DNA of 64,000 bases from an uncultured Gammaproteobacteria bacterium (GTDB lineage Bacteria; Patescibacteriota; Microgenomatia; UBA8517), in NCBI GenBank assembly GCA_964635715.1, contig CAZWNZ010000001.1, positions 74,358-138,357 on the forward strand, written 5' to 3'. Positions 43,493-64,000 of the stretch are shown here, piece after piece. The translations under genes and the position numbers were made by a program. The first letter of the stretch is position 1. Every line of letters begins with the position of its first letter. The notes under the pieces are model-generated. The model was not told where the DNA came from. It saw only the letters and a program-made list of their open reading frames with translations, and ran no database searches.

Positions 43493-43740
43493 GGATATTT
43501 TTCTAAAATTCTAACTTATCAACAGCAGTATTAAACTTATCCACAAATTTATTCACAAATTACTACGCATAATATCAACACAAAAACATCCCGAAAAACG
43601 AATTCGAAAGTGGTTTCTTTTCAACTTATCAACCCTTTCTACTACTAGAACTACTAGTATATATATGATAAATACAAGAAAACCGAAAACAAATAAATAT
43701 TGATTTTTGAGTGTTTTCCTTTTACCCTTAACCTACTGTT
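43493..43740. promoter_or_regulatory. Putative oriC segment in the dnaA-dnaN spacer (DnaA boxes plus AT-rich unwinding stretch)
   Basis: TTATCCACA perfect at 43537..43545; one-mismatch boxes TTATCAACA 43516..43524, TTATTCACA 43549..43557, TTATCAACC 43626..43634; AT-rich tatatatatgataaata near 43660. Confidence 0.6.
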
Positions 43741-48025: not shown

Positions 48026-49894
48026 TTATTTGTCAGCGTATGGATTGGTGTTTACCTTCACAACTTCCTGTGGTTTAGTTGTAATTAATCTGTTTTCTTC
48101 TTCCGAAGCAACAATTCTAATTGGGGCATGGTGTGGCCCTGCAAAGAAAATGCCTTCTCCAACATTGGCTGCAAGAAGAAGCCTTTTTTCTCCTTGGGAC
48201 AAATAGAAGACCTCGCCAATCTTATCAATTGCGGCAGGGGATTGCTTTAAGAGAAGCTGCATGGCGCTATTTGTGACAATAGCCTTTCCAATGTCCTGTC
48301 CGAGGAAGTCCTCGACGTCCTGAGTGATTGTAGTGAGTCCTAGATAGTATTTACGGGCCCTTTTAACAACACTCCATAAAAATTGGGCAGTATCGGGATA
48401 TCTCATCATGTGCCAAGCTTCATCTACAATCAAAATTCTTCTCTTGAGATTCTTTTTAACCCTAGTCCAAATATAGTCGAGAATAATAAACATGGCGATT
48501 GGGCGAATGGCGTCCTGCATATCTTTAACAGAAAACACAGTGAAGGGATTGATAATGTTAATGTTAGTTTGTTGATCGAAAATTCCTACAAAGCTTCCTC
48601 TAACAAATTTTTCAAGTCTGGCGGCAAGATCCAGAGCTTCAGGTGATTCCATGCCGATCAGGGTTTTGTAAAGATCTTCCATGAGAGGGGGTTCTTTGCC
48701 TTGGGTCTCGGGATCCATAGTAATTCCTTTGGCCCGATAAGTCATTATTAAGGCACGGTCAAGCAATGCCTCCTGAATTGGGGTGATTGCCCCCATAATC
48801 ACTTTCATTAGGGAATGAAGAGAAAGTATTTTTAGTCCAAGCTGATTTTCACCCTCTTCACGGATTTGGGACAGATCAAAAGGATTAATTTTTGCCTGGG
48901 AATTGTAGGAGAATGATATATATTCACCACCCACCGCTTCGGCTATAGATTTATATTCGCTTTCAGGATCAATAACTATTGTTTCGACCCCTGTCATGAG
49001 CGACCTTAGCGCCTCAAGTTTAACAAAATAGGATTTACCGGCTCCCGATGTTGCAAAAATTGTCATGTTGGCATTTTGCAGGCTAAACCTATCAAAAATA
49101 ATAAAAGATTCGTTTTGAGAATTCATTCCATAGAGAACACCTCTGTCACTTGAAAGTTCGGTTGAGGTTAGGGGAAAAGTTGTGGCAACCGATGTGGTAT
49201 CCATATTTCTGGTGATGTTAAGGCGGTCGATGCCAAACGGGGCAGTTGCCAAAAACCCCTCTGACATATTTAGCATGGCATGTTTGCTGACAATCATAAG
49301 GGATCCAAGTTGAGATTCGACCTGTTTAGTTATTTGATTCAGTTCCTCAACGGAATTTGCAGGGATTGTAATGTAAAAACCAAATTCGTAAAATCTTTCA
49401 ATTCCTTTAACTAATTGTTCCTGCAGCGCCTGAGCATCCTCTAATTTTGCCTGTGTCACCGGATCAACCAGTTTTCCCCGTTCGATATCTGTGGTCATTT
49501 CAGCTTCCATTTCGGCGATTTTTCGCCTTAGATCATCAAGAACGCTCTTTCCGTCGACTGGATAGATATAAAAAGAAATATCCAAAGAGGTATCAATATT
49601 GACTACGGGTTCGAGCCACCCCGGGGCGACAAATCTTGGATATCCACCGACAAAAATTGTCCTGAAATAGACATCGTTGACTTTGATATAGTCAAAATCA
49701 ACCTCAACCGATTGGGGTGAAATTACATCAAGTAGGTTCATTCCCTGATTCATAACCGAATAGGCGGCTGAAACAACCGGAGGCTTAACCTCCGTATTAG
49801 AATCTTGAATCTTGAATCTTGAATCTTGAGACGTGGAGCCTAAATCCTGATCTGCAGGTTTTATATTTGGTGTTTTTGTAATATTGTTTTGCAT
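48026..49894 (-). CDS. VirB4/TrbE/CagE-family T4SS ATPase, C-terminal ~620 aa (middle plus ATPase domains)
   Basis: Walker A IFATSGAGKSYFVKLE, Walker B ILIVDEAWHMM (the hhhhDEAW typical of VirB4), mid-domain KVNDVYFRTIFVGGYPRFVAPGWL. Confidence 0.8.
   Translation of the reverse strand: MQNNITKTPNIKPADQDLGSTSQDSRFKIQDSNTEVKPPVVSAAYSVMNQGMNLLDVISPQSVEVDFDYIKVNDVYFRTIFVGGYPRFVAPGWLEPVVNIDTSLDISFYIYPVDGKSVLDDLRRKIAEMEAEMTTDIERGKLVDPVTQAKLEDAQALQEQLVKGIERFYEFGFYITIPANSVEELNQITKQVESQLGSLMIVSKHAMLNMSEGFLATAPFGIDRLNITRNMDTTSVATTFPLTSTELSSDRGVLYGMNSQNESFIIFDRFSLQNANMTIFATSGAGKSYFVKLEALRSLMTGVETIVIDPESEYKSIAEAVGGEYISFSYNSQAKINPFDLSQIREEGENQLGLKILSLHSLMKVIMGAITPIQEALLDRALIMTYRAKGITMDPETQGKEPPLMEDLYKTLIGMESPEALDLAARLEKFVRGSFVGIFDQQTNINIINPFTVFSVKDMQDAIRPIAMFIILDYIWTRVKKNLKRRILIVDEAWHMMRYPDTAQFLWSVVKRARKYYLGLTTITQDVEDFLGQDIGKAIVTNSAMQLLLKQSPAAIDKIGEVFYLSQGEKRLLLAANVGEGIFFAGPHHAPIRIVASEEENRLITTKPQEVVKVNTNPYADK
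49800..49827. repeat. Four perfect GAATCTT heptamers at the 5' end of the VirB4 ATPase ORF
   Basis: gaatcttgaatcttgaatcttgaatctt; encodes QDSRFKIQDS at codons ~23-32. Confidence 0.7.
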
Positions 49895-49898
49895 ATTT

Positions 49899-49930
49899 TC
49901 TAGATTCTAGCTACTAACTACTAGATTCTT
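49899..49930. repeat. CTAG-rich heptamer array (TCTAGAT TCTAGCT ACTAACT ACTAGAT) in the 19-nt gap separating the two VirB4 ORFs
   Basis: Provides TAG stops on the coding (minus) strand between 49914..50648 and 48026..49894. Confidence 0.6.
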
Positions 49931-50648
49931 GTTTGTCCAATATAACTTCCGGTTCTTTTTTAACAGCCGGCTTCTCGGGATTGTAAATGGAATAGTAAAG
50001 ATTGATAAGCTCAGGTGTGGTAAGTTGTTTGAATTTCAGTCCCAATCTCCCTGCCTGGCGGATCAAGTGGTCGCGTCTTGGATAAAGGGTGATTTTTGCT
50101 TTCTTAATAACGTACGATTTCGGAAATGGCAGGGGTCCTCCTCCTTTGGTAATCGCGGCTACAGATTTGGCAATACCAAGTTCAAGGGGGGATAAATAAA
50201 GGATAACAAAAAATCTTTTACCCAAAACATTTTTCTTTTTAACGGATTCACTGATAAAGTTCCGGTAGTTTTGCATCAAGTTGGAGAGTAGCGGTTGGGT
50301 CATTTTTTTTGCCTGTTCATCGAGAAAATTCAGATAGGATGAAATATCTTTTTTCTGTGTCAGAACTACAATCTGTGTAGAAAAAGTCAGAGAGTTTATC
50401 ATGGCTGCATAGGCTGCAATTACCGCCTCTTGTTCTTTTTCTGAAAGGAGACCAAAGTTTAAAGAAGTAGATTCCATAATGAGTGAGGCGCCGCCATCTT
50501 TATAGATAACAATGTCGTTTGTTATATCCGCAACCGGCACGAAATCCTGTGTTGTGGCCGTAAGCGGTTTGTCGGGAACACTCAGGAAAGGAATCTTAAG
50601 TTTAGAATTTTGAATCTTGAATTTTGAATCTTGAATTTTACTATTCAT
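49914..50648 (-). CDS. VirB4 N-terminal-domain-like protein (separate ORF; apparent split of the VirB4 gene)
   Basis: DITNDIVIYKDGGASLIMESTSLNFGLLSEKEQEAVIAAYAAMINSL resembles the N-terminal region of monoderm-type VirB4 ATPases (tentative, by eye); 244 + 622 aa equals the usual VirB4 length; 5' end carries the heptamer-encoded MNSKIQDSKFKIQNSKLKIP. Confidence 0.5.
   Translation of the reverse strand: MNSKIQDSKFKIQNSKLKIPFLSVPDKPLTATTQDFVPVADITNDIVIYKDGGASLIMESTSLNFGLLSEKEQEAVIAAYAAMINSLTFSTQIVVLTQKKDISSYLNFLDEQAKKMTQPLLSNLMQNYRNFISESVKKKNVLGKRFFVILYLSPLELGIAKSVAAITKGGGPLPFPKSYVIKKAKITLYPRRDHLIRQAGRLGLKFKQLTTPELINLYYSIYNPEKPAVKKEPEVILDKQESSS
50591..50639. repeat. Seven-unit heptamer array (GAATCTT/GAATTTT alternating) at the 5' end of the VirB4-N ORF
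   Basis: gaatcttaagtttagaattttgaatcttgaattttgaatcttgaatttt. Confidence 0.65.
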
Positions 50649-51016
50649 TTTATTAGTTTTGATTTTTTAATCAGCCCATTTAATATTTTCAAAGTAATTA
50701 CGGATTGATCATATAAATGATCGAACTCCTTTTGTCCAATAAATTTGACATCTCGGGATATGATTAGTTGGTTTTGCAATTCGGTAATAGACCCTGCTGA
50801 GATTCTAAAGAACTGCAATTTTTCTTTATAGGAATATCTACTAAATCCTTCAGCAATATTGCTTGTTATTGAAACTGCACAACGCCTCATTTGATTTGTA
50901 ATTCCAAACATCTCAGATTTCGGAAAATTACCAGTCACTTCGTAGATGCCAATAACAAGTTGATGCCCTTCTTTCCAGGCATTTAAATCAGTAAAATTAA
51001 TAATTTTATTTTCCAT
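50645..51016 (-). CDS. Four-helix-bundle protein (TIGR02436 / 23S rRNA-IVS protein / Avd family)
   Basis: ITNQMRRCAVSITSNIAEGFSRYSYKEKLQFFRISAGSITELQNQLIISRD is a textbook family signature; ATGA-coupled to VirB4-N and abutting the stop of the upstream gene. Confidence 0.8.
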   Translation of the reverse strand: MENKIINFTDLNAWKEGHQLVIGIYEVTGNFPKSEMFGITNQMRRCAVSITSNIAEGFSRYSYKEKLQFFRISAGSITELQNQLIISRDVKFIGQKEFDHLYDQSVITLKILNGLIKKSKLIK

Positions 51017-52108
51017 TTAATTTAATGGTGTTCCACTAGATTCGAGATTCAAGATACTAGATTCTACTTGTAGTCTTTTTCCTGTAACAAGTATTGGTGG
51101 AATTATCTCTCCCTTAGCCTCAAAATTGACGGGCATAAATTGATAACCGTCCTTTTCGCTGATAATGCTGTATTTCCCGTTTTCGAGAGGTGTGACTGCC
51201 ATAAAATGGCCAAGCTTGTTGCTTCTGAGAGCCCTTATTGGTCTTCCATATTCATCTCGTATTTCGATTATTGCGCTTTCTATTATTCTTCTGGCCTCAT
51301 CGACAACTTGTCCGACAATAACATTTGGACTGGTTGGGGGATTGGGCGGTGTGGCATCGATCGAGAATATCGCCTCTTTTGTAGACACTATTTCCTCACC
51401 GACGACTGTCGGATTGACTTGCTGAGTTTGGAATTGTGCTGTTTGGTCAATGATTTTTGGTTTTTCCTCCACAACAAGATGGGAGGTCTGTGGTGAAACA
51501 ATTTTAACAGGGTTGCTTACCGGAATTTCAAGTTTTTTAGGTTCAGTAGAAGCTACAGGTTGGTTGGTTGGTTGGGCTACTGTCGTAGCCAGTGGTGTTT
51601 TAATACCCGCAAGTATGCCGGCTAGTTTGGAAAAAAAACCTTGTTCAGCAACCTCGAGTTTGGCAAGTGGTCCTTGCGGAGACCTGGAGCTGTCAAGATA
51701 GTTTTTAACAGCCGCATCCTGATTTTGTGTTTGAGAATTTGGGATGTTTGAGGACGGACTTTCGTCCTGAAAAAATTTCCGGATACCTGTTGTTTTTTTC
51801 CAGTGGAAAGTAGTAGGAGAATAAATTGCTTTAAAGAAAGCCAGGATCCACTGTTCCAGTGGGCGTTCCTCAAGAGGAACAAAAGCCATAGCAGCTCCAA
51901 GAATGACAAATATAATTATAAAAGGCCATTTAATAATTCCCGGAAGGGGGGTTGCGTAAAATATCAAACCAACTAATACGCCCCCCGCAAGTTCAAAGAA
52001 TTGCTTAAGAGTCATATCTCCAACCAATTTGAATTGGTAAGAACTTACGTTTTGTGGTATCGGATGTTGTTCCATGCTCTTGAGCAGGGCGAAAGAGCAC
52101 AAAAGCAA
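51017..52108 (-). CDS. VirB3/PrgI-like two-TM membrane protein with a long Q/P/T-rich extension and C-terminal beta domain (tentative)
   Basis: TM hairpin FFELAGGVLVGLIFYATPLPGIIKWPFIIIFVILGAAMAFVPLEERP in the position VirB3 usually occupies upstream of VirB4. Confidence 0.4.
   Translation of the reverse strand: MLLCSFALLKSMEQHPIPQNVSSYQFKLVGDMTLKQFFELAGGVLVGLIFYATPLPGIIKWPFIIIFVILGAAMAFVPLEERPLEQWILAFFKAIYSPTTFHWKKTTGIRKFFQDESPSSNIPNSQTQNQDAAVKNYLDSSRSPQGPLAKLEVAEQGFFSKLAGILAGIKTPLATTVAQPTNQPVASTEPKKLEIPVSNPVKIVSPQTSHLVVEEKPKIIDQTAQFQTQQVNPTVVGEEIVSTKEAIFSIDATPPNPPTSPNVIVGQVVDEARRIIESAIIEIRDEYGRPIRALRSNKLGHFMAVTPLENGKYSIISEKDGYQFMPVNFEAKGEIIPPILVTGKRLQVESSILNLESSGTPLN
51038..51065. repeat. 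Heptamer array (AGATTCG AGATTCA AGATACT AGATTCT), opposite orientation to the array at 50591..50639
   Basis: agattcgagattcaagatactagattct; lies in the 3' end of the upstream CDS. Confidence 0.55.
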
Positions 52109-52193: not shown

Positions 52194-52784
52194 CTAGTTG
52201 GCACTACAACAACAGCAACCCACATCACTATCATGATCGCTGCTACTATAGCTAGAATTGCTGTCATACACTTTTCTAGAAGGATCTATGTATGCCTTGG
52301 CCAACACCTCTTCAAGTTTATTAGCATTTTGCCAGTCTTGTTTTTGTAGACAAACCAATGCCTGTGCGTTAATGGATATGGATTCGTTGTCGGGAGCAAT
52401 TTGAATCTCTATAGATGAATAGTCATAACTACCCGTATGGTTTGAATCAACCTTTCCGTCGGCCCCAATTTTAAAAGATGTTCCCCAAACAAGTGCGATT
52501 CTACCTGTAGATGCAACATATTTTAGTTGATGGCTTTTAACATTACCATCAAGCATCTCTTTATCTATTCTTTCAAGGCAGTGAAGGATATTACTACTTC
52601 CGACAATTTCATTATTTTTAGAAATTACAAATTGAAGTCTTCTTTCCTCAGCTTCCTTTTCAAGCCTCTTCTTTTCTTCGTTAGCCAACCTTTCTTTTTC
52701 GAGGACCTCCTGACGGGCTTTTTCCTGTCTGGCAGCCTCCTCAGCTCTTTCCTGTTGAATACGCTTTATTATTTCAATTGGCAT
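52194..52784 (-). CDS. Hypothetical protein with coiled-coil N-terminus and Ser/Cys-rich C-terminal tail; candidate YcaO/SagB substrate
   Basis: Ends ...YDSNSSYSSSDHDSDVGCCCCSAN; lies immediately downstream of the SagB-type dehydrogenase in the same operon. Confidence 0.4.
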   Translation of the reverse strand: MPIEIIKRIQQERAEEAARQEKARQEVLEKERLANEEKKRLEKEAEERRLQFVISKNNEIVGSSNILHCLERIDKEMLDGNVKSHQLKYVASTGRIALVWGTSFKIGADGKVDSNHTGSYDYSSIEIQIAPDNESISINAQALVCLQKQDWQNANKLEEVLAKAYIDPSRKVYDSNSSYSSSDHDSDVGCCCCSAN

Positions 52785-52818
52785 ATTTGGCTGTATTATA
52801 TGTCTACAACAATAAAAG

Positions 52819-53451
52819 TCAAGCTCCTATAGCCAAATAGTATATTGGATATTCCTCACGGGGATTTATGTCGAGGAGTTTAATTAGCGGCTTTTCGTTT
52901 AACATTCCAATTGCACAACATCCGATTCCAAGACTCGTTGACAGTAAATATATATTTTGCGCAACATGCCCAGCTTCAATATAAGGAAAATACATCCCTC
53001 TTTCTTTATATTTATCTGTGGTTCTATGAAATACAGAAGTAAGAATTATCAAAACAGAAGCTTTTTTGAACCATAACTGTTTTGTCATCCAGATCTGATC
53101 AATATCCTTGGTTGCCATTTTTCTGTGTAGAATTTCTAACCCATGACTAATTGGATTGTAGTGATATAAACCTTGCCTAATATTTCCGCCTTTCATGACA
53201 AGTATATAAGCCTCGAGCGGATATTTTGCGCCAGCAGATGGATAAACACGAAAGGGGTTTTTTTCTTCATAAGGATTTTGTCTAATTGCCGCTAGACTGT
53301 GGTATAGAATATCAGACAAAGTCTTTTTGCCCACCGTTTTTCCTGTAAAGTTCCTAGATGATGTTCTACTTTTTATGATTTTTCTTAATTCTCCGGCCGT
53401 ATTTGTTCGGGGGAGTGGTATTTTTTCTAACCTGGAATAAGTTTTGTGCAT
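52819..53451 (-). CDS. SagB-type (nitroreductase-fold, FMN) dehydrogenase of azoline/azole RiPP pathways
   Basis: RTSSRNF...YPSAGAKYPLEAYILV...GLYHYNP...KYKERGMYFPYIEAGHVAQNIYLLSTSLGIGCCAIG matches the TIGR03605 SagB-type pattern. Confidence 0.7.
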   Translation of the reverse strand: MHKTYSRLEKIPLPRTNTAGELRKIIKSRTSSRNFTGKTVGKKTLSDILYHSLAAIRQNPYEEKNPFRVYPSAGAKYPLEAYILVMKGGNIRQGLYHYNPISHGLEILHRKMATKDIDQIWMTKQLWFKKASVLIILTSVFHRTTDKYKERGMYFPYIEAGHVAQNIYLLSTSLGIGCCAIGMLNEKPLIKLLDINPREEYPIYYLAIGA

Positions 53452-53453
53452 AC

Positions 53454-54812
53454 TTAAAAAGGATGAATTTTTGATAGCTCATTAACATTCATATTTAGAT
53501 TTACATCAATATTCCTATTTTTTGGAACTTCAGTGAGTCTTTTTATGCCAAAATATGGATATCTTTCGTCGTGCCATAGAGGTACCATTTCTGGGACAAG
53601 AACCTTGACAACTTTCAAACACACTTTTTCAATTTCAGGAGTCGTCATGTCGATATAATATGCGGTGCACCCAATGTTTTTAAGCTTTGAAAGAGTGTAC
53701 TTAAGATATTCTTCATCTGTCTTGAACATTGTTGTTTTAGTCAACGAAACTTGCTTGGAGCTCTTAATAAAATTTTCGACCTGCCCTATCATATGCGGAG
53801 CTGACCACTCACGATGTTTCTGCCAATTAAACCATTCAAACGATCCTTTTGGGGGCGGAGGGTTGTTCACATAAAAATATTTTTTTCTATTTGTTACATA
53901 TCTTCTGAGCGCCTCAATCGCCGATATCTTTAACACATTAGCTGTGTCTAGGCCGGCCCCCAGGCCACAACACACCGCAGGGCCCACGCCCGTTCTGTCT
54001 ACAAGAAGGCAAACAACTGAAAATATTCCAGTGTCTAGCGTGGTATCAAAAAAATAAATCTCAAAATTATATCTGGCGAATTTTTCTACAAGTTCTTTTA
54101 ATTCTTTATTTGACTTGTCTAGCGAAATCAAGCGTTTTGGTATTTCTGGAAGAAACGAAATTACATACCCATCCCTCTCAATAATTTCACAAAGCCCCCT
54201 ATAAACAGCAAAATCAATGTTTGGACCGCAGGCGGCCCCCGTACTTATAGGCATTCGTATAACTGGTTCATTGTGTTGTTTGTGGGAATAATTTGCGTAT
54301 GCTAAAGAGGCAGGTATTAGTTTTTTCTCATGACTTATTAGATTATGCCCCATCAGCCAATTAATCTGCGAGTTTCTGGATATATTAAACTTTTTGTACT
54401 TTTTTGTGGACAGCTGTTTGGGTGTAAAAGGAACAAAAACTGTTGGATCAATGGCATTATTTTTTAACTGTATATATGATCCATGTACAAACTTTTCCGG
54501 AGTTTCGTTCAAGATACAATAATGTTCTATAGCTTCGGTTATTGAACGTTCGATGGATGTTCTCTCGTTGTCGCTTCCACCATAACCATAGGCAGTGTTA
54601 ACTTTGTTTCCTTTTGAATATCTTTCACAGGAATATATAAAAAACTGGGGAATGTCTGGCCATGTTTTACTTTGAGTTAGTTGTCCAAGTATTTTATGGG
54701 ATTGCAGGTCATTGTGGATTTTTTTAAAACGAGAAGACAATGGTAATTTTGAAAACGGAAATGTCCTTACTGCAGGGTCATGGGGCAGAGCGATTCGAGC
54801 ACCGTTTTTCAC
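53454..54812 (-). CDS. YcaO-domain protein (ATP-dependent cyclodehydratase family)
   Basis: GYGGSDNERTSIERSITEAIEHY (G-GxG-S-ERS-EA-ER motif) and PISTGAACGPNIDFAVYRGLCEIIERDG (PxSxGxAxG...E..ERD) are YcaO ATP-binding signatures. Confidence 0.8.
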   Translation of the reverse strand: MKNGARIALPHDPAVRTFPFSKLPLSSRFKKIHNDLQSHKILGQLTQSKTWPDIPQFFIYSCERYSKGNKVNTAYGYGGSDNERTSIERSITEAIEHYCILNETPEKFVHGSYIQLKNNAIDPTVFVPFTPKQLSTKKYKKFNISRNSQINWLMGHNLISHEKKLIPASLAYANYSHKQHNEPVIRMPISTGAACGPNIDFAVYRGLCEIIERDGYVISFLPEIPKRLISLDKSNKELKELVEKFARYNFEIYFFDTTLDTGIFSVVCLLVDRTGVGPAVCCGLGAGLDTANVLKISAIEALRRYVTNRKKYFYVNNPPPPKGSFEWFNWQKHREWSAPHMIGQVENFIKSSKQVSLTKTTMFKTDEEYLKYTLSKLKNIGCTAYYIDMTTPEIEKVCLKVVKVLVPEMVPLWHDERYPYFGIKRLTEVPKNRNIDVNLNMNVNELSKIHPF

Positions 54813-54886: not shown

Positions 54887-57622
54887 ATGCCAGAAACATT
54901 AGGAAGACCGGGCATTCCTTCACAATTGGAATCAAAGGGATTCTATCATACACCACACAAAGACGATGGTTCTGGCTTGCCCGAAATTGATCCAGCAGAC
55001 GCAGCTTTGAATGATGCAATAAATCGACAGATTGGAAGAGAATTTGAGGTCAATGCAGAGATGGCAACAAATCCGGAAACTTCAGCTGATTTTTTTGAGG
55101 GTCTTAGGGGAGTTGAAGAATTACAAGAGGATGGGAACGTTCCGAAGGAAGCTCAAGATCGTTGGACTCCGTCAAGACTTCATTCGGCAATGTATTACAA
55201 TGCCAAGGCACTTGGTGTTTCTATAAATGAGCTTCTTAGGAAAGGAAGAATTGAGCCAACAAAGATTACTGAGCTCATAGATGGAAAGGCGGTAGTCACT
55301 GATGGATACAAACCAACTAAACCCAAGTTTGCATCCTTCGCAATATCATATGAGCCATTTAAGGCTGGAAATGTCAAATTGGGTAATGGCTTTAATCGTG
55401 ACGAAATTGATTATAAATATGATTTTGGAATACCAACAGAAAATTCAAATAAGAGGCTTGAGATGGCTCTTGCAGTCAAGAAGGGTATAACTGAATATCA
55501 AGCACGCTTGATCCTGGGTGAACATATTTCCGTAAGGACCAGTCTGAGATTTCGCGACTCTTTAGAAGACTTGGTGGGTATTATGCATAGTGGTAGTGTT
55601 ACTTATTTTAAGGGTGATCATTTGAAGGGATTGTTTAATTTGCCTAGCGTGCGGGAATTAGAAGGCGGTATAAAACTGTCCGATACAAATAAAGAACAAG
55701 TTAGGACGAGAGTAGAAGAAGAAAACGCAAAACAACTTTCAAAAGAAAACAGACCACTCACAGATGAACAAAGAGAAATTGTCACGGCATCAATTAGAGA
55801 CCCTCTAATATCTAAAGAATTTGAAAACAGACACGAATTTGGTGATCAAGTTGAAGAGGCAATTTTTCTTAATATGATAATGTTAAATTCCTCAGGAAAA
55901 ACCAGAATGCAGGAGTTTCTCAAAAGACCAGGAGTAATTAAATTAATGTCGAGGTTGGCAGATAAGGATGTCAGTTTACAAAATTTATTAAACAAGAAAG
56001 ATTTAGAATTGATGACAAATGAGCAGGTGATGCTGAGCAAGGCTAAACAGTGGCAACTTGCACACATTGGGGATGTCGATAATTGGATAGATGACAAAGA
56101 TAGATATTTGGAAAACACCACAGTCAGAATGAAAAATGGAGTTGAGGTAAAAGAGGGTGGAACAAAGGTAAGAGTGAAAGCAACTTGGAGGGAAGAATCA
56201 GAAATAGGTCTCCGTAAAGAGTTAACTAAATGGGCAAATATTTCCGCCTGGGGCGGAAACCCTTCTGAGTTTAGTGCAGATAAAGAAATTCGATTTATTG
56301 AAGGTGCTATTGGAGATGTTGTTGGAAGCAAGGAAGCTGCTTGGCTTGCGGCAACATTTTTGAGATCAATCGGTGCATATGCCTCCGAGGGATATGCGGT
56401 TCTTCCACCAAAGGATGGGGGAAGCGTGAAAGGTAGATTTTTATTACCATTAGGAGAAGGTCGATATATAAGCGGGGACGATACAGGAAAATTTTATGCA
56501 AATCTGTTTAACTTAAAAGAAGGGCTAAAAGGTCGCGCATCTGGCCTGAAAGATATGATAGGTAGAGTTCCCGACATGGCAATGAACCTTTTTGATTGGG
56601 CTGGAGTTGAGGTGGGTAATGCAGACGGCACCGACCCCGAATATCCTCTTAATTGGGATGGAACAATGCAAAAAAGATCTGTATGGGATGCCTGGCTTGG
56701 GACAGCGGAGCAGCCATTGAGAGATATATTAACTGGTGGAGATGTGGTGGAAGTTGCTAAGATAGATGGGAATATTCTTAACAAACTTAGTGATGAAGAT
56801 AAGGAAACGGTTACAGCTAACAAAATGGGATTTGTTGAAGTCAAAAGAAAAACAAATAACAGTGGTAAGGAAGAAGTGGTTTATAAAGTTCTAGATTTAG
56901 ATACAAATGACAGAATCTCTTCGGGGAGAGTTTTAATAAAAGGAATTAAAAACAAACACGGGCTGCCGCTTATCGATAAAAACAATCAAGAAAAAATGTT
57001 TTTGTGGGTTGCTGAGGAAAAAGGTAAAAGATTAGGAGATCTGAATTTCAAAACACTTGAAAGAGAATTCCATGGAACTTTCACAATTATGCAGTGGCTT
57101 ATGGGGAACGGGGAGGGACCAACAGGCGTTTTTGTTGATGCTCTAAAGACAAATTTCAGGCCTGAGGATTTTGAAATGAATGAGCTCAAAAAGAAAATTA
57201 AGTATATCGGAATTGTCATGAATCCGGTAGTTCTAACAAAAGGTTCTCAACACCTATATAAAGATGCGGGCGGGGCTGCTGGAGTAGTCCAAAATGTATT
57301 TTTTGATAATTTAATGAATGCAAGAAAACGCAGCAATTGGTTTGCTCAGAATATTTTAGGCAACTTTGTAAAACTATTTAATCCTGATGGTGGAGTAACA
57401 ACCACCTCCTCAGCAATGCTTGTTGATGCGTATATTACTGAAGCAAAAAAGAAATCTGGCATGGAATCAGTATCCGACCTGGTCAAACATTATATAGACG
57501 GAAATGGGGATATGAGAACGATAGCTGGAGAAAAAACTAACACTGTTGTTAAGCAAGTTATCGAAAGTGCGAGTCTTACAGATAAAAATATTGGCATGAT
57601 TAGGGGTAAAAATACCTATTAA
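54887..57622 (+). CDS. Large (911 aa) hydrophilic orphan protein, no signal peptide or TM; GC-richer than its surroundings
   Basis: Long uninterrupted ORF, divergent from the YcaO operon; TATAAT-like box at ~54868; no recognisable motifs by eye. Confidence 0.5.
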   Translation: MPETLGRPGIPSQLESKGFYHTPHKDDGSGLPEIDPADAALNDAINRQIGREFEVNAEMATNPETSADFFEGLRGVEELQEDGNVPKEAQDRWTPSRLHSAMYYNAKALGVSINELLRKGRIEPTKITELIDGKAVVTDGYKPTKPKFASFAISYEPFKAGNVKLGNGFNRDEIDYKYDFGIPTENSNKRLEMALAVKKGITEYQARLILGEHISVRTSLRFRDSLEDLVGIMHSGSVTYFKGDHLKGLFNLPSVRELEGGIKLSDTNKEQVRTRVEEENAKQLSKENRPLTDEQREIVTASIRDPLISKEFENRHEFGDQVEEAIFLNMIMLNSSGKTRMQEFLKRPGVIKLMSRLADKDVSLQNLLNKKDLELMTNEQVMLSKAKQWQLAHIGDVDNWIDDKDRYLENTTVRMKNGVEVKEGGTKVRVKATWREESEIGLRKELTKWANISAWGGNPSEFSADKEIRFIEGAIGDVVGSKEAAWLAATFLRSIGAYASEGYAVLPPKDGGSVKGRFLLPLGEGRYISGDDTGKFYANLFNLKEGLKGRASGLKDMIGRVPDMAMNLFDWAGVEVGNADGTDPEYPLNWDGTMQKRSVWDAWLGTAEQPLRDILTGGDVVEVAKIDGNILNKLSDEDKETVTANKMGFVEVKRKTNNSGKEEVVYKVLDLDTNDRISSGRVLIKGIKNKHGLPLIDKNNQEKMFLWVAEEKGKRLGDLNFKTLEREFHGTFTIMQWLMGNGEGPTGVFVDALKTNFRPEDFEMNELKKKIKYIGIVMNPVVLTKGSQHLYKDAGGAAGVVQNVFFDNLMNARKRSNWFAQNILGNFVKLFNPDGGVTTTSSAMLVDAYITEAKKKSGMESVSDLVKHYIDGNGDMRTIAGEKTNTVVKQVIESASLTDKNIGMIRGKNTY

Positions 57623-57636
57623 TTGAAGATTAAATT

Positions 57637-59511
57637 TTAAGTACCACCCTCAACTTTGGGTTTTTTGTTTTTCAAAGCTTCCTTTACCCTGGTTGTCCAG
57701 TTGGCAAGTTTGTCTTCCAGAGCCACCTTTCTGGCAGTTTCTAAATATGGAGCCCCTGTTTGTCCCCAGGCCCACTTGGCTGGTCCAAATGCCTCCCCAA
57801 TTGCACTACCATAAGCAAACGGCTTACCTGTAATGAACCCTTGGACAATTTCAGTGGCCTTGGGAATTAAAGTAAAAACAACGAAACTTACTGCCATAAA
57901 AATCAATCCAACAACCAAGGAATTATTACTCAGACCCAAAAGAGGAAGTTGTACGGAGCTGGATAACGCTTGGTTGGTTGTTCCCAAAATGGCATCTGCA
58001 ATACTTGATCCAGTAATTAGTCTCAAAAGTCCTGCCCCAAAACCGTTTGGGAAAGCATTTTCGATCCCTAAGAGAAGAAAAATGTATGCCAACAAAAATA
58101 AAACTCCAGTAATTACAAAAACAGCAAGAGACGAAACAAAGCTTTTTAGCCACGAAGCAAAACCTAAATTAGAAATAATTATACCAGCTGTTATTTGAAG
58201 CGGAGCGGCTATTGTTAATAGAAATATTTGGGCACAAGCTTTGGTGAGTTTCCATACAATTTTAATAGAGGTGACAAGTGTCATAATAGTAATTATTATT
58301 AGCAAAATAATGTAAACAATCACGCCGACTGAGAGTATGTCTCCAAATCCTTTAAGAACGTCTTTAATGTAAATAGCTAGGCCAAATGAAAAATATTTTG
58401 AAAATTGAGTCAAATAATTGGCGACTAAGGCAAACACACCTTTTCCGTCTGGACCGTTAGTTAGCCAGCTGAATACATAAGCAGCGCTAGTATCTCCATA
58501 TTCCGATCCTGGAACAGCTTTGACGATTGGGGCAGCAAAAATACTAATCAATCCTATTACGACATACATGAGATCGATTAGAAATCCAGCTATTGCATAC
58601 GAAAAAGTTACCAGAACTAAGGCAATCAATATTTTAGGGATGGCTGATTGAATGGTGATTACAACTTGTGGTGATATTTTAACTCTGAACATTACCATGA
58701 ACGACAAAACAATGGCGGCAATCACAAAAAGAATGTAAGCCATGTTTCGCACAGCGACCCACATATTTTGGACTACTTCTAAAAACTGAAAACCGACACC
58801 CATATCGTTTGTTTGCGCTTTTACACTTTTAACAGGTTGAAGTTTTTGAAAAACACCCTTTGTATAAGAAATTCCTGAAAAAGGGCGATCGTCGGCAAAA
58901 ACTGCTGCTAATAAAGGAGTATTGGCATGATCCGAACCTGCAATTATATTGTTTTTAATTTTCAAAAAAGATTCAGAATTGGAAACGTCCTCCAGTATAC
59001 ACGTATCTTCAGTTCCACCATTTAATAAACATTGGATAGCCGACACAGAACCCTCACCTGATGTTGAGTTTATAATAAAGCTGTAAATACTATAAAATAT
59101 CCACTGAACCTGTGCTGCAGTATATCTTTCTCCGAAAATCTCATTGGGGTTGGAGTTGTCATATACTTTACTTGACCATTCCTGAAAAGATTGGTTGTAC
59201 CAAGTTCCGGATGAAGCCGTTGTTGATGATGTTGTTGTAGAGTCACCACTGACACACGCTACATCTGTCGCGCTTTGACAAGATTCTTTATCAGTTATGG
59301 CAGTGCAATAATCGGAGTCGACCTCATAACCATCATTACAATCGGCATATGATTCTGCTTCCGCCCTACATGAAGTTAAGTTCCACTTACATTCAAAAGT
59401 GTTGGTTGCCGCTTGTATTTTGGAAACGGGTGCGGCAATGAAATAAAACAAGCCAAAGATAAAAAAAGATGCGAGCAGTTTTTTCATTTGATTTATCCTT
59501 AATCTTATCAA
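57637..59511 (-). CDS. VirB6/TrbL-like polytopic T4SS membrane protein with Cys-containing extracellular N-domain
   Basis: Signal peptide (MKKLLASFFIFGLFYFIAAPVSKIQA from 59487), 6 or more TM helices, hydrophilic C-terminus; located between the pilin array and the VirB3/VirB4 genes. Confidence 0.45.
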   Translation of the reverse strand: MIRLRINQMKKLLASFFIFGLFYFIAAPVSKIQAATNTFECKWNLTSCRAEAESYADCNDGYEVDSDYCTAITDKESCQSATDVACVSGDSTTTSSTTASSGTWYNQSFQEWSSKVYDNSNPNEIFGERYTAAQVQWIFYSIYSFIINSTSGEGSVSAIQCLLNGGTEDTCILEDVSNSESFLKIKNNIIAGSDHANTPLLAAVFADDRPFSGISYTKGVFQKLQPVKSVKAQTNDMGVGFQFLEVVQNMWVAVRNMAYILFVIAAIVLSFMVMFRVKISPQVVITIQSAIPKILIALVLVTFSYAIAGFLIDLMYVVIGLISIFAAPIVKAVPGSEYGDTSAAYVFSWLTNGPDGKGVFALVANYLTQFSKYFSFGLAIYIKDVLKGFGDILSVGVIVYIILLIIITIMTLVTSIKIVWKLTKACAQIFLLTIAAPLQITAGIIISNLGFASWLKSFVSSLAVFVITGVLFLLAYIFLLLGIENAFPNGFGAGLLRLITGSSIADAILGTTNQALSSSVQLPLLGLSNNSLVVGLIFMAVSFVVFTLIPKATEIVQGFITGKPFAYGSAIGEAFGPAKWAWGQTGAPYLETARKVALEDKLANWTTRVKEALKNKKPKVEGGT

Positions 59512-59537: not shown

Positions 59538-61949
59538 TTAATAACAGTCAGCGCTAAAGGGATACCCAGTAAAGTTGCAGCTTGTCATTGTGTTCCAATG
59601 GATATCCATAAGTTCCATATATTGTTCTGCTTTAGGTGGTAACTCTTTCTTGTCTATATTACAGTATCCGTAATAGTAAATAGAAAAGAACATTTCGGTG
59701 TCGCGCCCCTTGCCGAAACATGAAGCATACTGAGGAGCGGTTTTATAATATTCCATAAGTTCGAAAAACTCATTAATTTGTGCAGTAAAACCTCTGTACT
59801 TGGAGCTGTTTATCCCAAAGTCCTGATTGGAAATTTCATAATTACTTGCACCGCTCTCATTTACCCATAGGAGTAGTGTAAATGCAGGGTTTACGTTAGC
59901 TGCAATAGATTTTCTGACAACATCGTTATAGCATTCCAGAACATGATCACCCTCGCGTCCTTCCCAAGCGATTGCAAACTCATGCAAGTCTTCCTTTGAA
60001 ATTAATTTTGGTGCTAAAGAAGATACATCGGCAGCCGTTTGGTCGCAATCGATCCCTGTATTTGTTATATCTTCGATGATGTCATTTTCTGCAAAAGCAA
60101 TTTGTTCCCCATACCCCTTTGGTCTGAGAGCTGTTTGGATTCCCTTTAGGAAGTACTCCGAAACTCCTCCGACGTGGGGAATTTTAAGGTCGGTATTAGA
60201 CTCACTCATATCCGTGCCGGAGTATGTGATGTTGGAAGAACCTGCTATGTCAATTATTTTCCCGACGCCTCCCTCAGTGTTTGTTTTTGGAAAAATTCTC
60301 TTAAAAACTGACATGGATCCTGCCACAAGACGCGACCAGACATCATCCACAAGGGGAATGTTGGACTGAGTGGAAAGATTTATATAAACCTTTTTACTGC
60401 ATTTTTGCCTGACAATTTGAGGAATACACTCCTTGTCTATAAGCGAACCACAACGTTCGCCGACATAATGACCGTTATAGCACATGCAATCAAGAGGCTC
60501 GGTATCGCAAGGTTTGTCTATCAGAGAACCACAGCGTTCGCCGACATAATTTCCGTTAATGCACATACAGTCGAGAGGGTCATCTTCCGTGGTAGGTTCG
60601 TTAAATATGCAGGTAAAGCCGGCGGTATAAGAAAGGTCTCCTGTTAGTTGATTGGCAAAGAGGTCGTCTCCTGCATTTGAACGTACTTCCACGGTGCTGC
60701 ACGATGTATCTGAAATATTCGTAGGACTACTTACTTTCTCCTCTCCTTGCGGTATATAAGTATCCTGTAAAAGCGAACCTAACTCATCGGCTTCGACCAT
60801 GTGAGGCAGAAATAGAGTGGAAGGCAATTGGTTGGAAAAAGTGATGTTTTTAACCGTAACCCCGGTAGTATTTAGATTGGTTGATGAGGAAACGTTATCT
60901 ATTTTAATATTTCCCTCCACATCTTCTGTTGATGAGAGGGAAATATATGGAAAAAGTTCCGCATATTTGCTTTTAACAAGAGGATTTTTTACACAAATGA
61001 GTTGATTGATAACAGGTATTAGGGCACATGTGTCTCCCTGCCATTCTCTATATGCTTTAAGATATTCTTTTTCATTTTCAAATTGTTCATTCCAGGGGAG
61101 AGGAGGGGTTCTTTTGTTCCAAGCTACACCAACATATCGATTGATTTCTTCGGATGTAGCATTCGGTAAAAGATTTAGGATGGCTCTCTTTAAAATATTG
61201 GAAATACCTCTGGTGATACCAAGACCGCCACTTTCCCATTCTGTAAGGCGATATGTATTGGAAATGACACTATTTTCATCATGACACCCAACAGGATCTC
61301 CACTTAATGAAGTACAGACGACAACTTTATCGTGCTGCGTCTCCTTAGCTGATTCTATCATTTCAATTTGCTGAGCTTGTTGGATAGCTTGAGGCAGAAG
61401 TTTTTTTAGTGGCCCGGAATAATTTACAAAATTCTGATCAGTGTCATTGGCACTGCCATATTCAGTGCGGTTTGTGACACCGTTTAAGTACCAGCTGACA
61501 TATTCATTCATTTTTTGAGCGTCATCAAAACTCTCCTCGGAACTTTGCGAATTGATAACATCCTCAGTATTGCCCATAATAGGCAACTCAGCTCCGCTTA
61601 GGTTGATAGTCACGCTTTTGTTTACGTCTATATTGTATGTGCAGTAAATTTTGCCGTTTTTGGTCGTGCAGTCACCGGGAGTTCCGGGATAGTAAATATC
61701 AATGGTATTGGTAAGCGTTAAATCAGTTCCACAGTATGTTGCATAGTCTGAGACGCTGCTGGAACATTGTGTGTTTGCTTGATAGGGTCTAAGAGAGTGA
61801 AACTCTTCATCGTCGGCCAGTGTGCTATCGGTTGTTTCATCGCACTTTATATTTGTATTTGACGGAATCTGGGAGTGAACAGATGTTGGATCAAACAGGG
61901 ATAGAAAAAGAAACAAGGGAATTAGAAAGAGAACATGCAGTTTATTCAT
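59538..61949 (-). CDS. Large secreted Cys-rich protein with tandem EGF-like ~24-aa repeat; candidate surface adhesin or T4SS-associated surface factor
   Basis: Signal peptide MNKLHVLFLIPLFLFLSLFDPTSVHS; PLDCMCINGNYVGERCGSLIDKPC / PLDCMCYNGHYVGERCGSLIDKEC tandem. Confidence 0.5.
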   Translation of the reverse strand: MNKLHVLFLIPLFLFLSLFDPTSVHSQIPSNTNIKCDETTDSTLADDEEFHSLRPYQANTQCSSSVSDYATYCGTDLTLTNTIDIYYPGTPGDCTTKNGKIYCTYNIDVNKSVTINLSGAELPIMGNTEDVINSQSSEESFDDAQKMNEYVSWYLNGVTNRTEYGSANDTDQNFVNYSGPLKKLLPQAIQQAQQIEMIESAKETQHDKVVVCTSLSGDPVGCHDENSVISNTYRLTEWESGGLGITRGISNILKRAILNLLPNATSEEINRYVGVAWNKRTPPLPWNEQFENEKEYLKAYREWQGDTCALIPVINQLICVKNPLVKSKYAELFPYISLSSTEDVEGNIKIDNVSSSTNLNTTGVTVKNITFSNQLPSTLFLPHMVEADELGSLLQDTYIPQGEEKVSSPTNISDTSCSTVEVRSNAGDDLFANQLTGDLSYTAGFTCIFNEPTTEDDPLDCMCINGNYVGERCGSLIDKPCDTEPLDCMCYNGHYVGERCGSLIDKECIPQIVRQKCSKKVYINLSTQSNIPLVDDVWSRLVAGSMSVFKRIFPKTNTEGGVGKIIDIAGSSNITYSGTDMSESNTDLKIPHVGGVSEYFLKGIQTALRPKGYGEQIAFAENDIIEDITNTGIDCDQTAADVSSLAPKLISKEDLHEFAIAWEGREGDHVLECYNDVVRKSIAANVNPAFTLLLWVNESGASNYEISNQDFGINSSKYRGFTAQINEFFELMEYYKTAPQYASCFGKGRDTEMFFSIYYYGYCNIDKKELPPKAEQYMELMDIHWNTMTSCNFTGYPFSADCY
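60405..60560. repeat. Tandem ~72-nt duplication inside the secreted-protein CDS (encodes the Cys-rich repeat)
   Basis: gaaccacaacgttcgccgacataatgaccgtt... vs gaaccacagcgttcgccgacataatttccgtt... Confidence 0.65.
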
Positions 61950-61973
61950 GACAATTCATTATAACAGTAGAAG

Positions 61974-62270
61974 TTAATTGGGGAGTACGACGTTAAAATC
62001 GGTAACATTTGCTCCGGTCAGATTCTTTATAAGTAAAAGAATTAAATAAGAGACAAGGATAATAACAAGCCCTGTAATCGCAGAAGTTAATGTTTTTTTG
62101 GCTCCCTCCGCAGCTTTCGGGTCTCCTCCTGATGTAATAAATTTAAAGCCACTAATTATTAGAAGAAAGAACAGAACTATTCCTGCCAAACCTAACGCAT
62201 AGCCAATTATGTTTTTAAAAACATCTCCCAGGTCGGCGATTGTAGCAATAGAATCACTAGCCATAAGCAC
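61974..62270 (-). CDS. VirB2/TrbC-like T4SS pilin, paralog 1
   Basis: Two hydrophobic helices flanking ITSGGDPKAAEGAKKTLTSAITGL. Confidence 0.55.
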   Translation of the reverse strand: MLMASDSIATIADLGDVFKNIIGYALGLAGIVLFFLLIISGFKFITSGGDPKAAEGAKKTLTSAITGLVIILVSYLILLLIKNLTGANVTDFNVVLPN

Positions 62271-62307
62271 ATTCTAAACTAAAAAAAGTTAGCGGGCAAT
62301 AAGACGG

Positions 62308-62643
62308 TTAAATTGAGGGGATAGCCAAAGAGAATATGTCAACACCGAAGAAGGTATTGATAAGGGCTACAATTGCCCATGCGGCGAAGACTATTACAAG
62401 GCCGACAAGAGCTGCTGTAATTTGGTTTCTGGCAGTTTCAGTTTTGACTTTATCTCCACCTGACGCAATCCATTTGATACCACCAATAACCAAAATGAAA
62501 AAGAAAATAATTGCAGCAACTATGACAATCAACCTGATACCACCCGAAATAATTTCAGGAATGGTCAAATCTCCTAATTTCTCAAAATTGGAATCACTTG
62601 GTTGAAGTTCAATTGTATCGGCTGCTAAAAGTAATTTTTGCAT
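62308..62643 (-). CDS. VirB2/TrbC-like T4SS pilin, paralog 2
   Basis: IKWIASGGDKVKTETARNQITAALVGL; the ORF runs to 62763, but the start at 62643 (MQKLLLAADT) avoids overlap with paralog 3. Confidence 0.5.
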   Translation of the reverse strand: MQKLLLAADTIELQPSDSNFEKLGDLTIPEIISGGIRLIVIVAAIIFFFILVIGGIKWIASGGDKVKTETARNQITAALVGLVIVFAAWAIVALINTFFGVDIFSLAIPSI

Positions 62644-62656
62644 TTGTATACAAGTA

Positions 62657-62983
62657 TTATCGAATAAATAGTTTACTGATGTCAAGAGCCAGTAGGTCAA
62701 TATTAAAGAAATGCTCCAACAATTCAAGTACTGCAAACGATGCGAAAAGAATAATAAGTCCAACCAAAGCGCTGGTTATTTTCCCGCGTGCGGCTTCGAC
62801 AGCTTGCTTGTCTCCACCGGAAGTGATCCATTTGATTGCTCCCATAACTAATGTAAAAAAGAAAATCACTACACCGATGATTAAGGCTAGGGTTATAAGT
62901 TTGGGGACAAAGTTTTGGAAAAAAGTTACACCATCAGAACCCAGATCTGATGTTATTGGATTAATTATTGTACTGCCTCCCAT
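62657..62983 (-). CDS. VirB2/TrbC-like T4SS pilin, paralog 3
   Basis: IKWITSGGDKQAVEAARGKITSALVGL. Confidence 0.55.
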   Translation of the reverse strand: MGGSTIINPITSDLGSDGVTFFQNFVPKLITLALIIGVVIFFFTLVMGAIKWITSGGDKQAVEAARGKITSALVGLIILFASFAVLELLEHFFNIDLLALDISKLFIR

Positions 62984-62985
62984 AT

Positions 62986-63354
62986 TTATTTGTTTAAATT
63001 AGTAATATTGCCAAATAGGCTGGTAAGATTCAAGATATCCGCTATACCCAGGATCTTTCCGATCAAACTTACTATCAAAACAGCCAAAAGTACGACAATC
63101 AAACCAATGATACCTGTTGTTATTCTTTTCCTCGACCCTTCCAAAGCCTGTTTGTCTCCGCCCGCACCGATCATGCTGATGGCTCCTGTTATAAATACAA
63201 ACAAAAACCAGATAATTGCAACAACAGTCATTACCCCGATTGCCATAGAAATAATAGAAGAAAGCTTACTAACACCATCACCAACATTTTCTCCCAAAGT
63301 TCCGATTCCCACAAAACCGTCTTTTGGTGCAATTGATAAAGCTAGTGTTTTCAT
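62986..63354 (-). CDS. VirB2/TrbC-like T4SS pilin, paralog 4
   Basis: ISMIGAGGDKQALEGSRKRITTGIIGL. Confidence 0.55.
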   Translation of the reverse strand: MKTLALSIAPKDGFVGIGTLGENVGDGVSKLSSIISMAIGVMTVVAIIWFLFVFITGAISMIGAGGDKQALEGSRKRITTGIIGLIVVLLAVLIVSLIGKILGIADILNLTSLFGNITNLNK

Positions 63355-63866
63355 AGTTCCGGTATTGTCGGGTTAAGTATATATGTTGCGTCGCCAAAAA
63401 TTAATCGTCCAAAAATAGCTGCCAAGACTAACGCTCCTGCTGCAACCAATAGACCAACTGCCGTTTGCCAGATTTTTGCCCAAGCTCCGGCGACTTTTTT
63501 GGGATCATCACCTGCAGAGAGGAAAGAGTATCCTGCAAGAATAAAATTAATAAGTGCATAGACTCCGGCGCCGGCTATTAAGATCCAAATAGCATACTGG
63601 ATTACTGTCCCAATAGCCGTACCCGGATTATCCCCATATTTGGATAATGCCGCTGGGGTGTCAATTTTTCCAAATGGGTTGTTGCTGGTGCCGCCTGAGC
63701 CAGTGTTTGATATACAACAATGTGCACTACAATAATATCCGGAGCCACACTCAGAAGAAGTGCTGCATTCGTATGGATAACATGCCGCCCGAATACTATT
63801 AGTCTGCAGTAATAGGAAAAAGCCAAAACTTAAAAGTATATAAAGGAATTTGGTTGTTATTTTCAT
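63351..63866 (-). CDS. VirB2/TrbC-like pilin, paralog 5, with signal peptide and extra Cys-rich N-terminal module
   Basis: AACYPYECSTSSECGSGYYCSAHCCIS followed by the pilin core FLSAGDDPKKVAGAWAKIWQTAVGL. Confidence 0.5.
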   Translation of the reverse strand: MKITTKFLYILLSFGFFLLLQTNSIRAACYPYECSTSSECGSGYYCSAHCCISNTGSGGTSNNPFGKIDTPAALSKYGDNPGTAIGTVIQYAIWILIAGAGVYALINFILAGYSFLSAGDDPKKVAGAWAKIWQTAVGLLVAAGALVLAAIFGRLIFGDATYILNPTIPEL

Positions 63867-63870
63867 TTGT

Positions 63871-64000
63871 TTAGATAATATCAGGCATTCCTAACAGTTG
63901 TCCGATCAATTTTACTATCCAATAGGATGCAAACACAACAACAAGGCCGATTACAGCAGAGGTAATAGTCTTTTTGGCTTGTTCATTCTTTTGAGGATCG
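63871..64000 (-). CDS. VirB2/TrbC-like pilin, paralog 6 (3' part only; truncated by the window edge)
   Basis: Reverse translation DPQKNEQAKKTITSAVIGLVVVFASYWIVKLIGQLLGMPDII*. Confidence 0.45.
   Translation of the reverse strand, partial: DPQKNEQAKKTITSAVIGLVVVFASYWIVKLIGQLLGMPDII

Follow-up and report, generated by a model that had tools for sequence, protein, structure and literature searches.

Tandem arrays of genes encoding small pilin-like proteins are an established feature of the Patescibacteria. A search of 3,035 Patescibacteria genomes with the PF18895 and PF04956 families identified arrays of 2–11 divergent VirB2-like pilins that are 'especially abundant in Microgenomatia', have a mean identity of 25% (maximum 54%) and lie near dnaA-proximal type IV secretion systems (T4SS) resembling the mating-pair formation class FATA (MPF-FATA) (Quinonero-Coronel et al. 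2025, PMC12102498). By analogy with the VirB2 arrays of Bartonella and Anaplasma, antigenic or host-range versatility has been suggested for these pilins (PMC12102498). Few systems have been shown to be indispensable to Patescibacteria as epibionts, and the T4SS and the pilin series belong to them: in Southlakia epibionticum, the one species for which this was shown, both were found by transposon sequencing (Tn-seq) to be required for epibiotic growth, and neither a relaxase nor a coupling protein can be recognized there (Wang et al. 2023, PMC10633639). A recent review raises the possibility of a pilus-like structure in a monoderm (2025, PMC12857230). Here, we analyze an array of this kind that lies at the end of a 64,000-nucleotide (nt) stretch of contig CAZWNZ010000001.1 (assembly GCA_964635715.1, positions 74,358 to 138,357), hereafter the window, and belongs to a Woesebacteria-like (Microgenomatia) genome with a monoderm-type T4SS.

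Because pilin arrays of Patescibacteria have already been published, the array in the window is another instance of a described system. It resembles the previously reported arrays (PMC12102498), including that of S. epibionticum ML1 (SEML1_0006-0019, PMC10633639), in that its PF18895/VirB2-like genes are arranged in tandem and share about 25% identity with one another, in that PrgI and VirB4 of an MPF-FATA-like T4SS lie next to it, in the vicinity of dnaA, and in that it comes from Microgenomatia, the group named as array-rich; there is no essential difference. Neither report mentions three details that emerge here (PMC12102498, PMC10633639): the order of eight pilin classes is fixed across Woesebacteria, every class is under purifying selection, and Cys-rich modules are attached to the termini of some of the proteins. 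A fixed and selected set of eight subunits, combined with variation in the terminal Cys-rich modules, provides a testable alternative to the published suggestion of versatility or antigenic variation, namely, a single heteromeric structure whose host-contacting tip varies, and points to the parts that could be mutated or swapped.

The array occupies positions 61974–64000 on the minus strand and comprises five complete small open reading frames (ORFs) and a sixth one truncated by the window edge. The last gene, W1 (61974–62264, 96 amino acids (aa) from its ATG codon), adjoins a gene for an 803-aa protein; then follow, toward the window edge, W2 (62308–62643, 111 aa), W3 (62657–62983, 108 aa), W4 (62986–63354, 122 aa), W5 (63351–63866, 171 aa), which carries an N-terminal graft, and W6 (63871–63999), represented by its C-terminal 42 codons and the stop codon (partial translation DPQKNEQAKKTITSAVIGLVVVFASYWIVKLIGQLLGMPDII). 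These six genes correspond to pilin-like classes 1–6, respectively. The start of W2 is set by its orthologues, so that a 151-aa ORF with a TTG start that overlaps W3 is spurious. The genes are separated by 2–43 nt, and W5 and W4 overlap through ATGA, an arrangement that is operon-like. A hidden Markov model (HMM) of the family, when run on the 64-kb window, picks exactly these six ORFs and nothing else (E 6e-19 to 7e-39; 2.6e-36 for W4, 5.6e-31 for W5 and 5.9e-19 for W6). In the alignment of the six proteins, the common core consists of a hydrophobic helix, a loop of the form S/A-G-G/D-D-x-K...A...I/T...G-L, and a second hydrophobic helix, with only a D, a G and an L being invariant. Pairwise protein identity is 22–43% among W1–W5, and the identity to W1 in the alignment of all six is 26–49%; at the DNA level, the strongest repeat shared between genes reaches 62–76% identity over 66 nt. 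Given this low protein identity and the weak DNA repeat, the genes are not assembly duplicates. A sequence-only reading of the window had described six tandem minus-strand paralogues of 98–171 aa sharing a helix-loop-helix motif. The paralogues, the upper size and the architecture of the core agree with our results; the lower size stems from an upstream GTG, and the regular expression offered for the motif was loose. Two ORFs antisense to the array (62598–63002 and 62990–63376, plus strand) were regarded as a side effect of hydrophobic coding on the minus strand and set aside.

The number six is itself an artefact of the window edge. A scan of the GTDB species representatives returned 80 loci, to which the family HMM and the class assignment were applied. 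In 37 of these loci, all from other species, the array consists of exactly eight genes, all on one strand and ordered 8-7-6-5-4-3-2-1, and the best class score of each gene is typically 1.3–3.5 times its second best. The orthologues of W1 in other Woesebacteria are 63–84% identical to it, and the contigs with orthologues at the upper end of this range (75–84%) contain eight consecutive small genes ahead of a gene for a protein of ~800 aa. Each class has its own conserved signature and a mean within-class identity of 46–66%, compared with 22–43% between the paralogues of the window, the most conserved being class 2 (66% over 38 species), and 7 of the 8 classes are monophyletic in a neighbour-joining (NJ) tree. 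The window holds classes 1–6, and classes 7 and 8 are expected past its edge. More distant Microgenomates have 3–6 genes, typically with a long class-8-like gene first and a class-1-like gene last. Among the relatives, classes 4 and 5 usually come without a precomputed PF18895 match (for example, L001 8529–9274 and L004 8452–9609), and these divergent classes probably are the 'non-pilin genes' said to interrupt the arrays in automated surveys. With classes 4 and 5 scored as non-pilin, the published arrays may be larger than stated.

Every class is under purifying selection. The ratios of nonsynonymous to synonymous substitution rates (dN/dS; Nei-Gojobori method, NG86) between the window genes and those of two relatives lie between 0.008 and 0.15 for every class, the values being approximate because dS is near saturation for several pairs. 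The ratio is 0.036 for W1 against locus L001, 0.008 for W2 (96% identical to L001_2), 0.14 for W3 (87% identical to L001_3), 0.10–0.14 for W4, and 0.056 for the core of W5 (85% identical to L001_5); W6 is 90% identical to L001_6. Between the paralogues, synonymous sites are saturated. The eight classes are an ancient, fixed orthologous set that is not recently diversifying.

These results bear on the possibility that the paralogues are interchangeable variants, expressed alternatively or as a mixture, that serve to evade recognition or to fit different hosts; the sequence-only reading, too, had named antigenic or functional diversification of a surface filament or pseudopilus as one of two possible causes. 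Several properties of the array would suit such variants: the array members share little identity, the N-terminal modules of class 8 vary widely between species in length (115–374 aa) and Cys content (2–33), the N-terminus of W5 has been swapped in comparison with a relative whose core is 95% identical, and lineage-specific duplications occur now and then, although rarely (L060, L039). Yet the same eight classes appear in the same order in 37 species, each with its own signature and under purifying selection; two pairs of loci from the same species but different samples (L001/L002 and L004/L005) are identical in gene number and sequence; the tight spacing and the overlapping stop and start codons imply co-expression; and the variation is confined to the terminal modules, rather than to which paralogue is present. 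We therefore consider antigenic or host-range variants an improbable explanation. The VirB2 paralogues of Bartonella and Anaplasma phagocytophilum similarly are several divergent pilin genes in a row that belong to a host-interaction T4SS (PMC12102498), but those arrays are read as antigenic or host-range variants, whereas the classes analyzed here are orthologous, fixed in order and constrained by purifying selection.

A much smaller probability, close to negligible, attaches to recent duplication by slippage, to an assembly artefact, or to an unrelated family of small membrane proteins such as holins. Slippage of the kind that spreads the heptamer tandem arrays found elsewhere in the window had been proposed as one possible cause of the multiplicity. 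However, there are no tandem repeats in 61900–64000, and the nearest array is at 50605, so that none lies within 11 kb of the pilin genes; given, in addition, the saturated dS between the paralogues and the positional orthologues across species, recent duplication by slippage is rejected. Any artefact of assembly would also have to accommodate inter-gene DNA identity of at most 76% over 66 nt. As for holins and other phage families, a PHROG comparison gave no match at E<=0.01, the proteins match PF18895, and the gene context is that of a T4SS. Neither of the two conditions that would have refuted the sequence-only reading, a holin-like family or assembly duplicates, is thus borne out.

The array proteins are members of PF18895 (T4SS_pilin), not demonstrable members of PF04956 (TrbC/VirB2), and we identify them as T4SS pilin-like proteins with high confidence. 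The PF18895 scores of W1 (38.9 bits, E 9e-10), W2 (33.3) and W3 (32.0) exceed the gathering cut-off of 26.6 bits; those of W4 (21.1 bits, E 3e-4) and W5 (19.8 bits, E 8e-4) fall below it. Across the eight classes, 142 of the 149 members match this family (E<=0.1). W1–W4 each contain two uncharged runs of at least 17 residues, and the AlphaFold2 (AF2) model of W1 is a hairpin (helix 9–44, loop, helix 49–83) with a predicted local distance difference test score (pLDDT) of 79.7. The sequence-only assignment to T4SS pilin-like paralogues thus agrees with both the family matches of the five complete proteins and the locus, whereas support for the narrower label 'VirB2/TrbC-like' is weak. When the family was compared by hhalign with a profile of seven authentic VirB2/TrbC proteins taken from plasmids, the score was 21.8 (P 0.0038, 60 columns in register, with a probability of 8.8%), compared with 12.3 for the reversed control and a maximum of 16.9 among 40 shuffles. 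PF04956 is matched by 7 of the 149 relatives, the best match (E 5.9e-5) standing out from transmembrane noise, and NCBIfam TrbC PRK13871 is matched by W2 alone (E 0.047). Plausibly, the array proteins are distant relatives of VirB2 that work in a VirB2-like manner. They share with the VirB2/TrbC/TraA pilins the small two-helix hairpin, the short basic inter-helix loop, the location next to VirB3/VirB4 homologues and the weak profile similarity in the right register. Unlike those pilins of diderm T4SS, they remain below the PF04956 thresholds, mostly lack a long cleaved leader, and form a set of eight paralogues, as opposed to one, in a monoderm without VirB7-10. In particular, W1–W4 have no hydrophobic leader of the VirB2 type (cleaved between A and Q) ahead of helix 1.

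In an alternative reading, the hairpins would be membrane-embedded: stoichiometric subunits of an inner-membrane or channel platform of the T4SS, comparable to the small proteins with two transmembrane segments in Gram-positive conjugation systems. Such a T4SS would make no pilus, and the Cys-rich modules would decorate its cell-surface face. The monoderm MPF-FATA systems, the closest ones to the Patescibacteria T4SS, indeed make no pilus (PMC12102498, PMC12857230), and the nearest NCBIfam model for all six proteins comes from such an element, that of the Mbov_0395 family pilin-like protein of the Mycoplasma integrative and conjugative element (ICE) (NF045849). About 65–70 of the 80 model residues are covered, with scores of 15.6–31.5 bits (E 1e-7 to 1e-2) that are all below the 40-bit cut-off; in that monoderm MPF-FATA-type conjugative element, the protein is encoded by a single gene. 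A two-helix hairpin is likewise formed by PrgF (75 aa) of the Enterococcus plasmid pCF10, whose loop reads S-G-x3-D-D-P and whose gene immediately precedes the VirB6/VirB3/VirB4 homologues. Furthermore, no solved pilin structure was matched: the sequence-profile search of the PDB retrieved nothing but helical repeats designed de novo, which were matched via the 'GDPKA' loop and judged spurious. Conversely, homology with PrgF gains no support from the hhalign score (16.1 over 24 columns), which does not exceed that of the reversed control (19.4), whereas the VirB2 comparison beats its controls and the matches of 7 of the 149 relatives to PF04956 (see above) also point toward VirB2. Eight conserved paralogues with adhesin-like modules at the termini resemble sets of major and minor pilins more than they do a platform. 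On balance, we regard a membrane platform as the main rival reading, but an unlikely one. PrgF itself yields only weak matches to Maff2 and DUF4134, and its homologues are all close Enterococcus relatives.

The distribution of the Cys-rich modules is informative with regard to topology. Among the array proteins of the window, only W5 has a Sec signal peptide; among the relatives, class 8 always does. In W5, the signal peptide, as read from the sequence, spans residues 1–27 (63786–63866, minus strand; MKITTKFLYILLSFGFFLLLQTNSIRA/A, with cleavage at ...SIRA/A) and precedes a mini-module with six Cys (63714–63782, minus strand; C-x4-C-x5-C-x5-C-x3-CC) that corresponds to the stretch CYPYECSTSSECGSGYYCSAHCC; both had been noticed in the sequence-only reading. 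The same Cys framework recurs in L010/P0156 (ACDPPECTLDTECGMGERCVAHCC), P0157 and P0218, and P0187 has a different Cys module; in all four of these database orthologues, the signal peptide has the same n-h-c/AxA architecture. The W5-type module is missing from 35 of the 37 class-5 orthologues, and in 32 of the 37, class 5 has no Cys at all. P0153 combines a core that is 95% identical to that of W5 with a short MNKLLA... N-terminus and no Cys module, which indicates that the module in W5 is a real, occasionally exchanged graft; signal peptide and module together are rare, occurring in about five orthologues. In class 8, the hypervariable region follows the signal peptide, whereas in L029 and L057, Cys-rich modules are located at the C-terminus of classes 3 and 4. 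The modules never occur in the inter-helix loop. These positions, along with the charge of the loop (+4/-2) and the acidic or neutral termini, support a topology in which the N- and C-termini are outside and the loop is inside. This is the known topology of VirB2-type pilins.

The N-termini of classes 2–5 show another recurrent feature, the motif M-x(1-3)-L-[LI]-A with an acidic or polar residue after it (for example, MQKLLLAAD and MNKLLA; 62626–62643 in W2), which is present in 28 of 37 sequences of class 2, 12 of 37 of class 3, 9 of 37 of class 4 and 14 of 37 of class 5. In W5 and the four orthologues with a Cys module, this motif is replaced by the Sec signal peptide and the module. The motif may be a signal for export or processing.

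Taken together, these observations lead us to favour, with moderate confidence, the reading that the array encodes co-expressed, specialised hairpin subunits which VirB4 assembles into one heteromeric structure. According to this proposal, the window genes are the 3' six of an eight-gene PF18895 (VirB2-like) array that opens a chromosomal, dnaA-proximal, monoderm-type (MPF-FATA-like) T4SS operon, and each product is a helical hairpin of roughly 95–125 aa, most likely inserted so that its two termini lie outside the cell and the basic S-G-G-D-x-K loop faces the cytoplasm, a side that in a filament would be the lumenal one. The eight classes originated by ancient duplication, and the VirB4-powered machine would build them into a single envelope-spanning or extracellular structure, in which the variable disulfide-rich modules on the exposed termini (always in class 8, and in class 5 in this lineage) would contact the host cell. 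That the subunits are non-redundant is suggested by the classes being fixed in order and under purifying selection. Whether the structure is a filament is close to an even call, with doubt slightly prevailing. The most comprehensive version of this scheme is a Woesebacteria T4SS pilus or pseudopilus of eight specialised VirB2-like subunits, with host specificity conferred by rapidly exchangeable disulfide-knotted modules on exposed termini (class 8 everywhere, class 5 here, and the C-termini of classes 3 and 4 elsewhere) and with the M-x-x-L-L-A motif of classes 2–5 dedicated to export or processing, a role in which a Sec signal peptide could take its place; the conjunction of all these parts is rather unlikely to hold. 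To our knowledge, a T4SS pilus with eight subunits would be unprecedented, the norm being one pilin plus VirB5.

As a functional analogy only, the pseudopili of type II secretion systems (T2SS) and type IV pili are comparable in that they also are conserved sets of co-transcribed small paralogues with distinct, non-redundant roles, and in that one subunit of a major/minor pilin set bears an adhesive or tip module. Unlike those systems, the array shows neither a class III signal (G followed by F...E5) nor a prepilin peptidase logic, the fold is a hairpin rather than a lollipop, and the ATPase is VirB4. No class III signal peptide (G followed by F/M-x3-E) was found in the six sequences or in the class consensus sequences.

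Several points weigh against the assembly of the eight classes into one heteromeric structure. The tie to bona fide VirB2/TrbC proteins is weak, with a hhalign probability of just 8.8% for the VirB2 match and no window protein matching PF04956 at E<=1. Most classes have no signal peptide, so that export of their N-terminal tails of 20–45 residues is assumed. The NJ tree does not recover class 3 as strictly monophyletic, the dN/dS values carry the uncertainty of near-saturated dS, and classes 7 and 8 of this genome lie outside the window and were not seen. We know of no filament or complex observed for any Patescibacteria T4SS.

The remainder of the T4SS locus continues downstream of the array on the same strand, in the order 803-aa protein, 624-aa protein, YcaO/nitroreductase insertion, PrgI, 23S-IVP/bAvd-like protein, TraC-like protein, VirB4 and M23-domain protein. 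The 803-aa protein (59538–61949, minus strand) is secreted and Cys-rich, with a signal peptide, Cys-rich repeats and no Pfam family; in 49 related loci, the array is likewise followed by a homologue. Within its gene, at 60433–60581, a direct repeat of 68 nt, with copies that are 84% identical and spaced by 81 nt, gives rise to a duplicated Cys-rich peptide, DPLDCMCxNGxYVGERCGSLIDKxC. The 624-aa polytopic membrane protein (57637–59511, minus strand), with many hydrophobic segments, a Cys-rich N-terminal ectodomain and no Pfam match, retains its position in 59 related loci and is a candidate VirB6 analogue. Cys-rich ectodomains are common to the 803-aa protein, the 624-aa protein and the class-8 pilins.

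The genes for VirB4 and PrgI are located 10–14 kb downstream of the array. PrgI (VirB3-like; 51017–52108, minus strand) is recognized by PF12666 (E 1.2e-7). The VirB4-type ATPase (48026–49894, minus strand) matches PF19044 (E 9.7e-27), AAA_10 and DUF87, and weakly CagE_TrbE_VirB. The TraC-like protein (49914–50648, minus strand) has no direct Pfam match and is assigned by orthology, being 86% identical to a gene of L004 with PF26593. The 895-aa protein at 45336–48023 (minus strand) contains a C-terminal M23 peptidase domain (PF01551 E 5.9e-4, below the cut-off) and is a candidate for the cell-wall hydrolase of the system. As in S. epibionticum, neither a relaxase nor a coupling protein turned up in the part of the locus that was scanned. 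The dnaA and dnaN genes (42131–44862, plus strand) are the immediate neighbours of the T4SS locus, with which they are convergent, and this adjacency fits the origin-proximal placement reported for Patescibacteria T4SS. Homologues bear Woesebacteria or Microgenomates names.

The locus also includes several further genes. Between the 624-aa gene and the YcaO insertion, a gene on the opposite strand (54887–57622, plus strand) encodes a 911-aa protein without a Pfam family; genes of similar size and orientation exist in the relatives, with poor sequence conservation (tblastn matches in three loci, 34–39% identity). The insertion itself (52194–54812, minus strand) consists of YcaO (53454–54812, PF02624 E 7.5e-51), a nitroreductase-family gene (52819–53451) and a 196-aa ORF. 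It is a possible cassette for azoline-type peptide modification, as in thiazole/oxazole-modified microcins (TOMM), with no precursor identified. It is not found at that place in L001, L004 and L010; a YcaO gene is there in L009 (70% identity). The Cys module of W5 was considered as a TOMM-like substrate of this cassette and rejected: L010 has the module without YcaO at this place, and L009 has YcaO without the module. The 23S_rRNA_IVP/bAvd-like gene (50645–51016, minus strand), located between PrgI and the TraC-like gene, encodes a four-helix bundle and is present in two copies in relatives (L001 17991–18377 and 19468–19881). Its similarity to bAvd suggested a diversity-generating retroelement (DGR), an idea that was dropped after no template/variable-repeat pair was found in 40–64 kb. 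Finally, the heptamer arrays of the window (7 nt x 3.6–4.7 copies) lie at positions 3712, 5666, 8839, 9112, 10661, 16639, 30709, 49800 and 50605. Their units are A/T-rich, GAATCTT, TTTGGAA and AATTCTA being among them, and two GAATCTT arrays occupy the 5' ends of the ORFs for VirB4 and the TraC-like protein.

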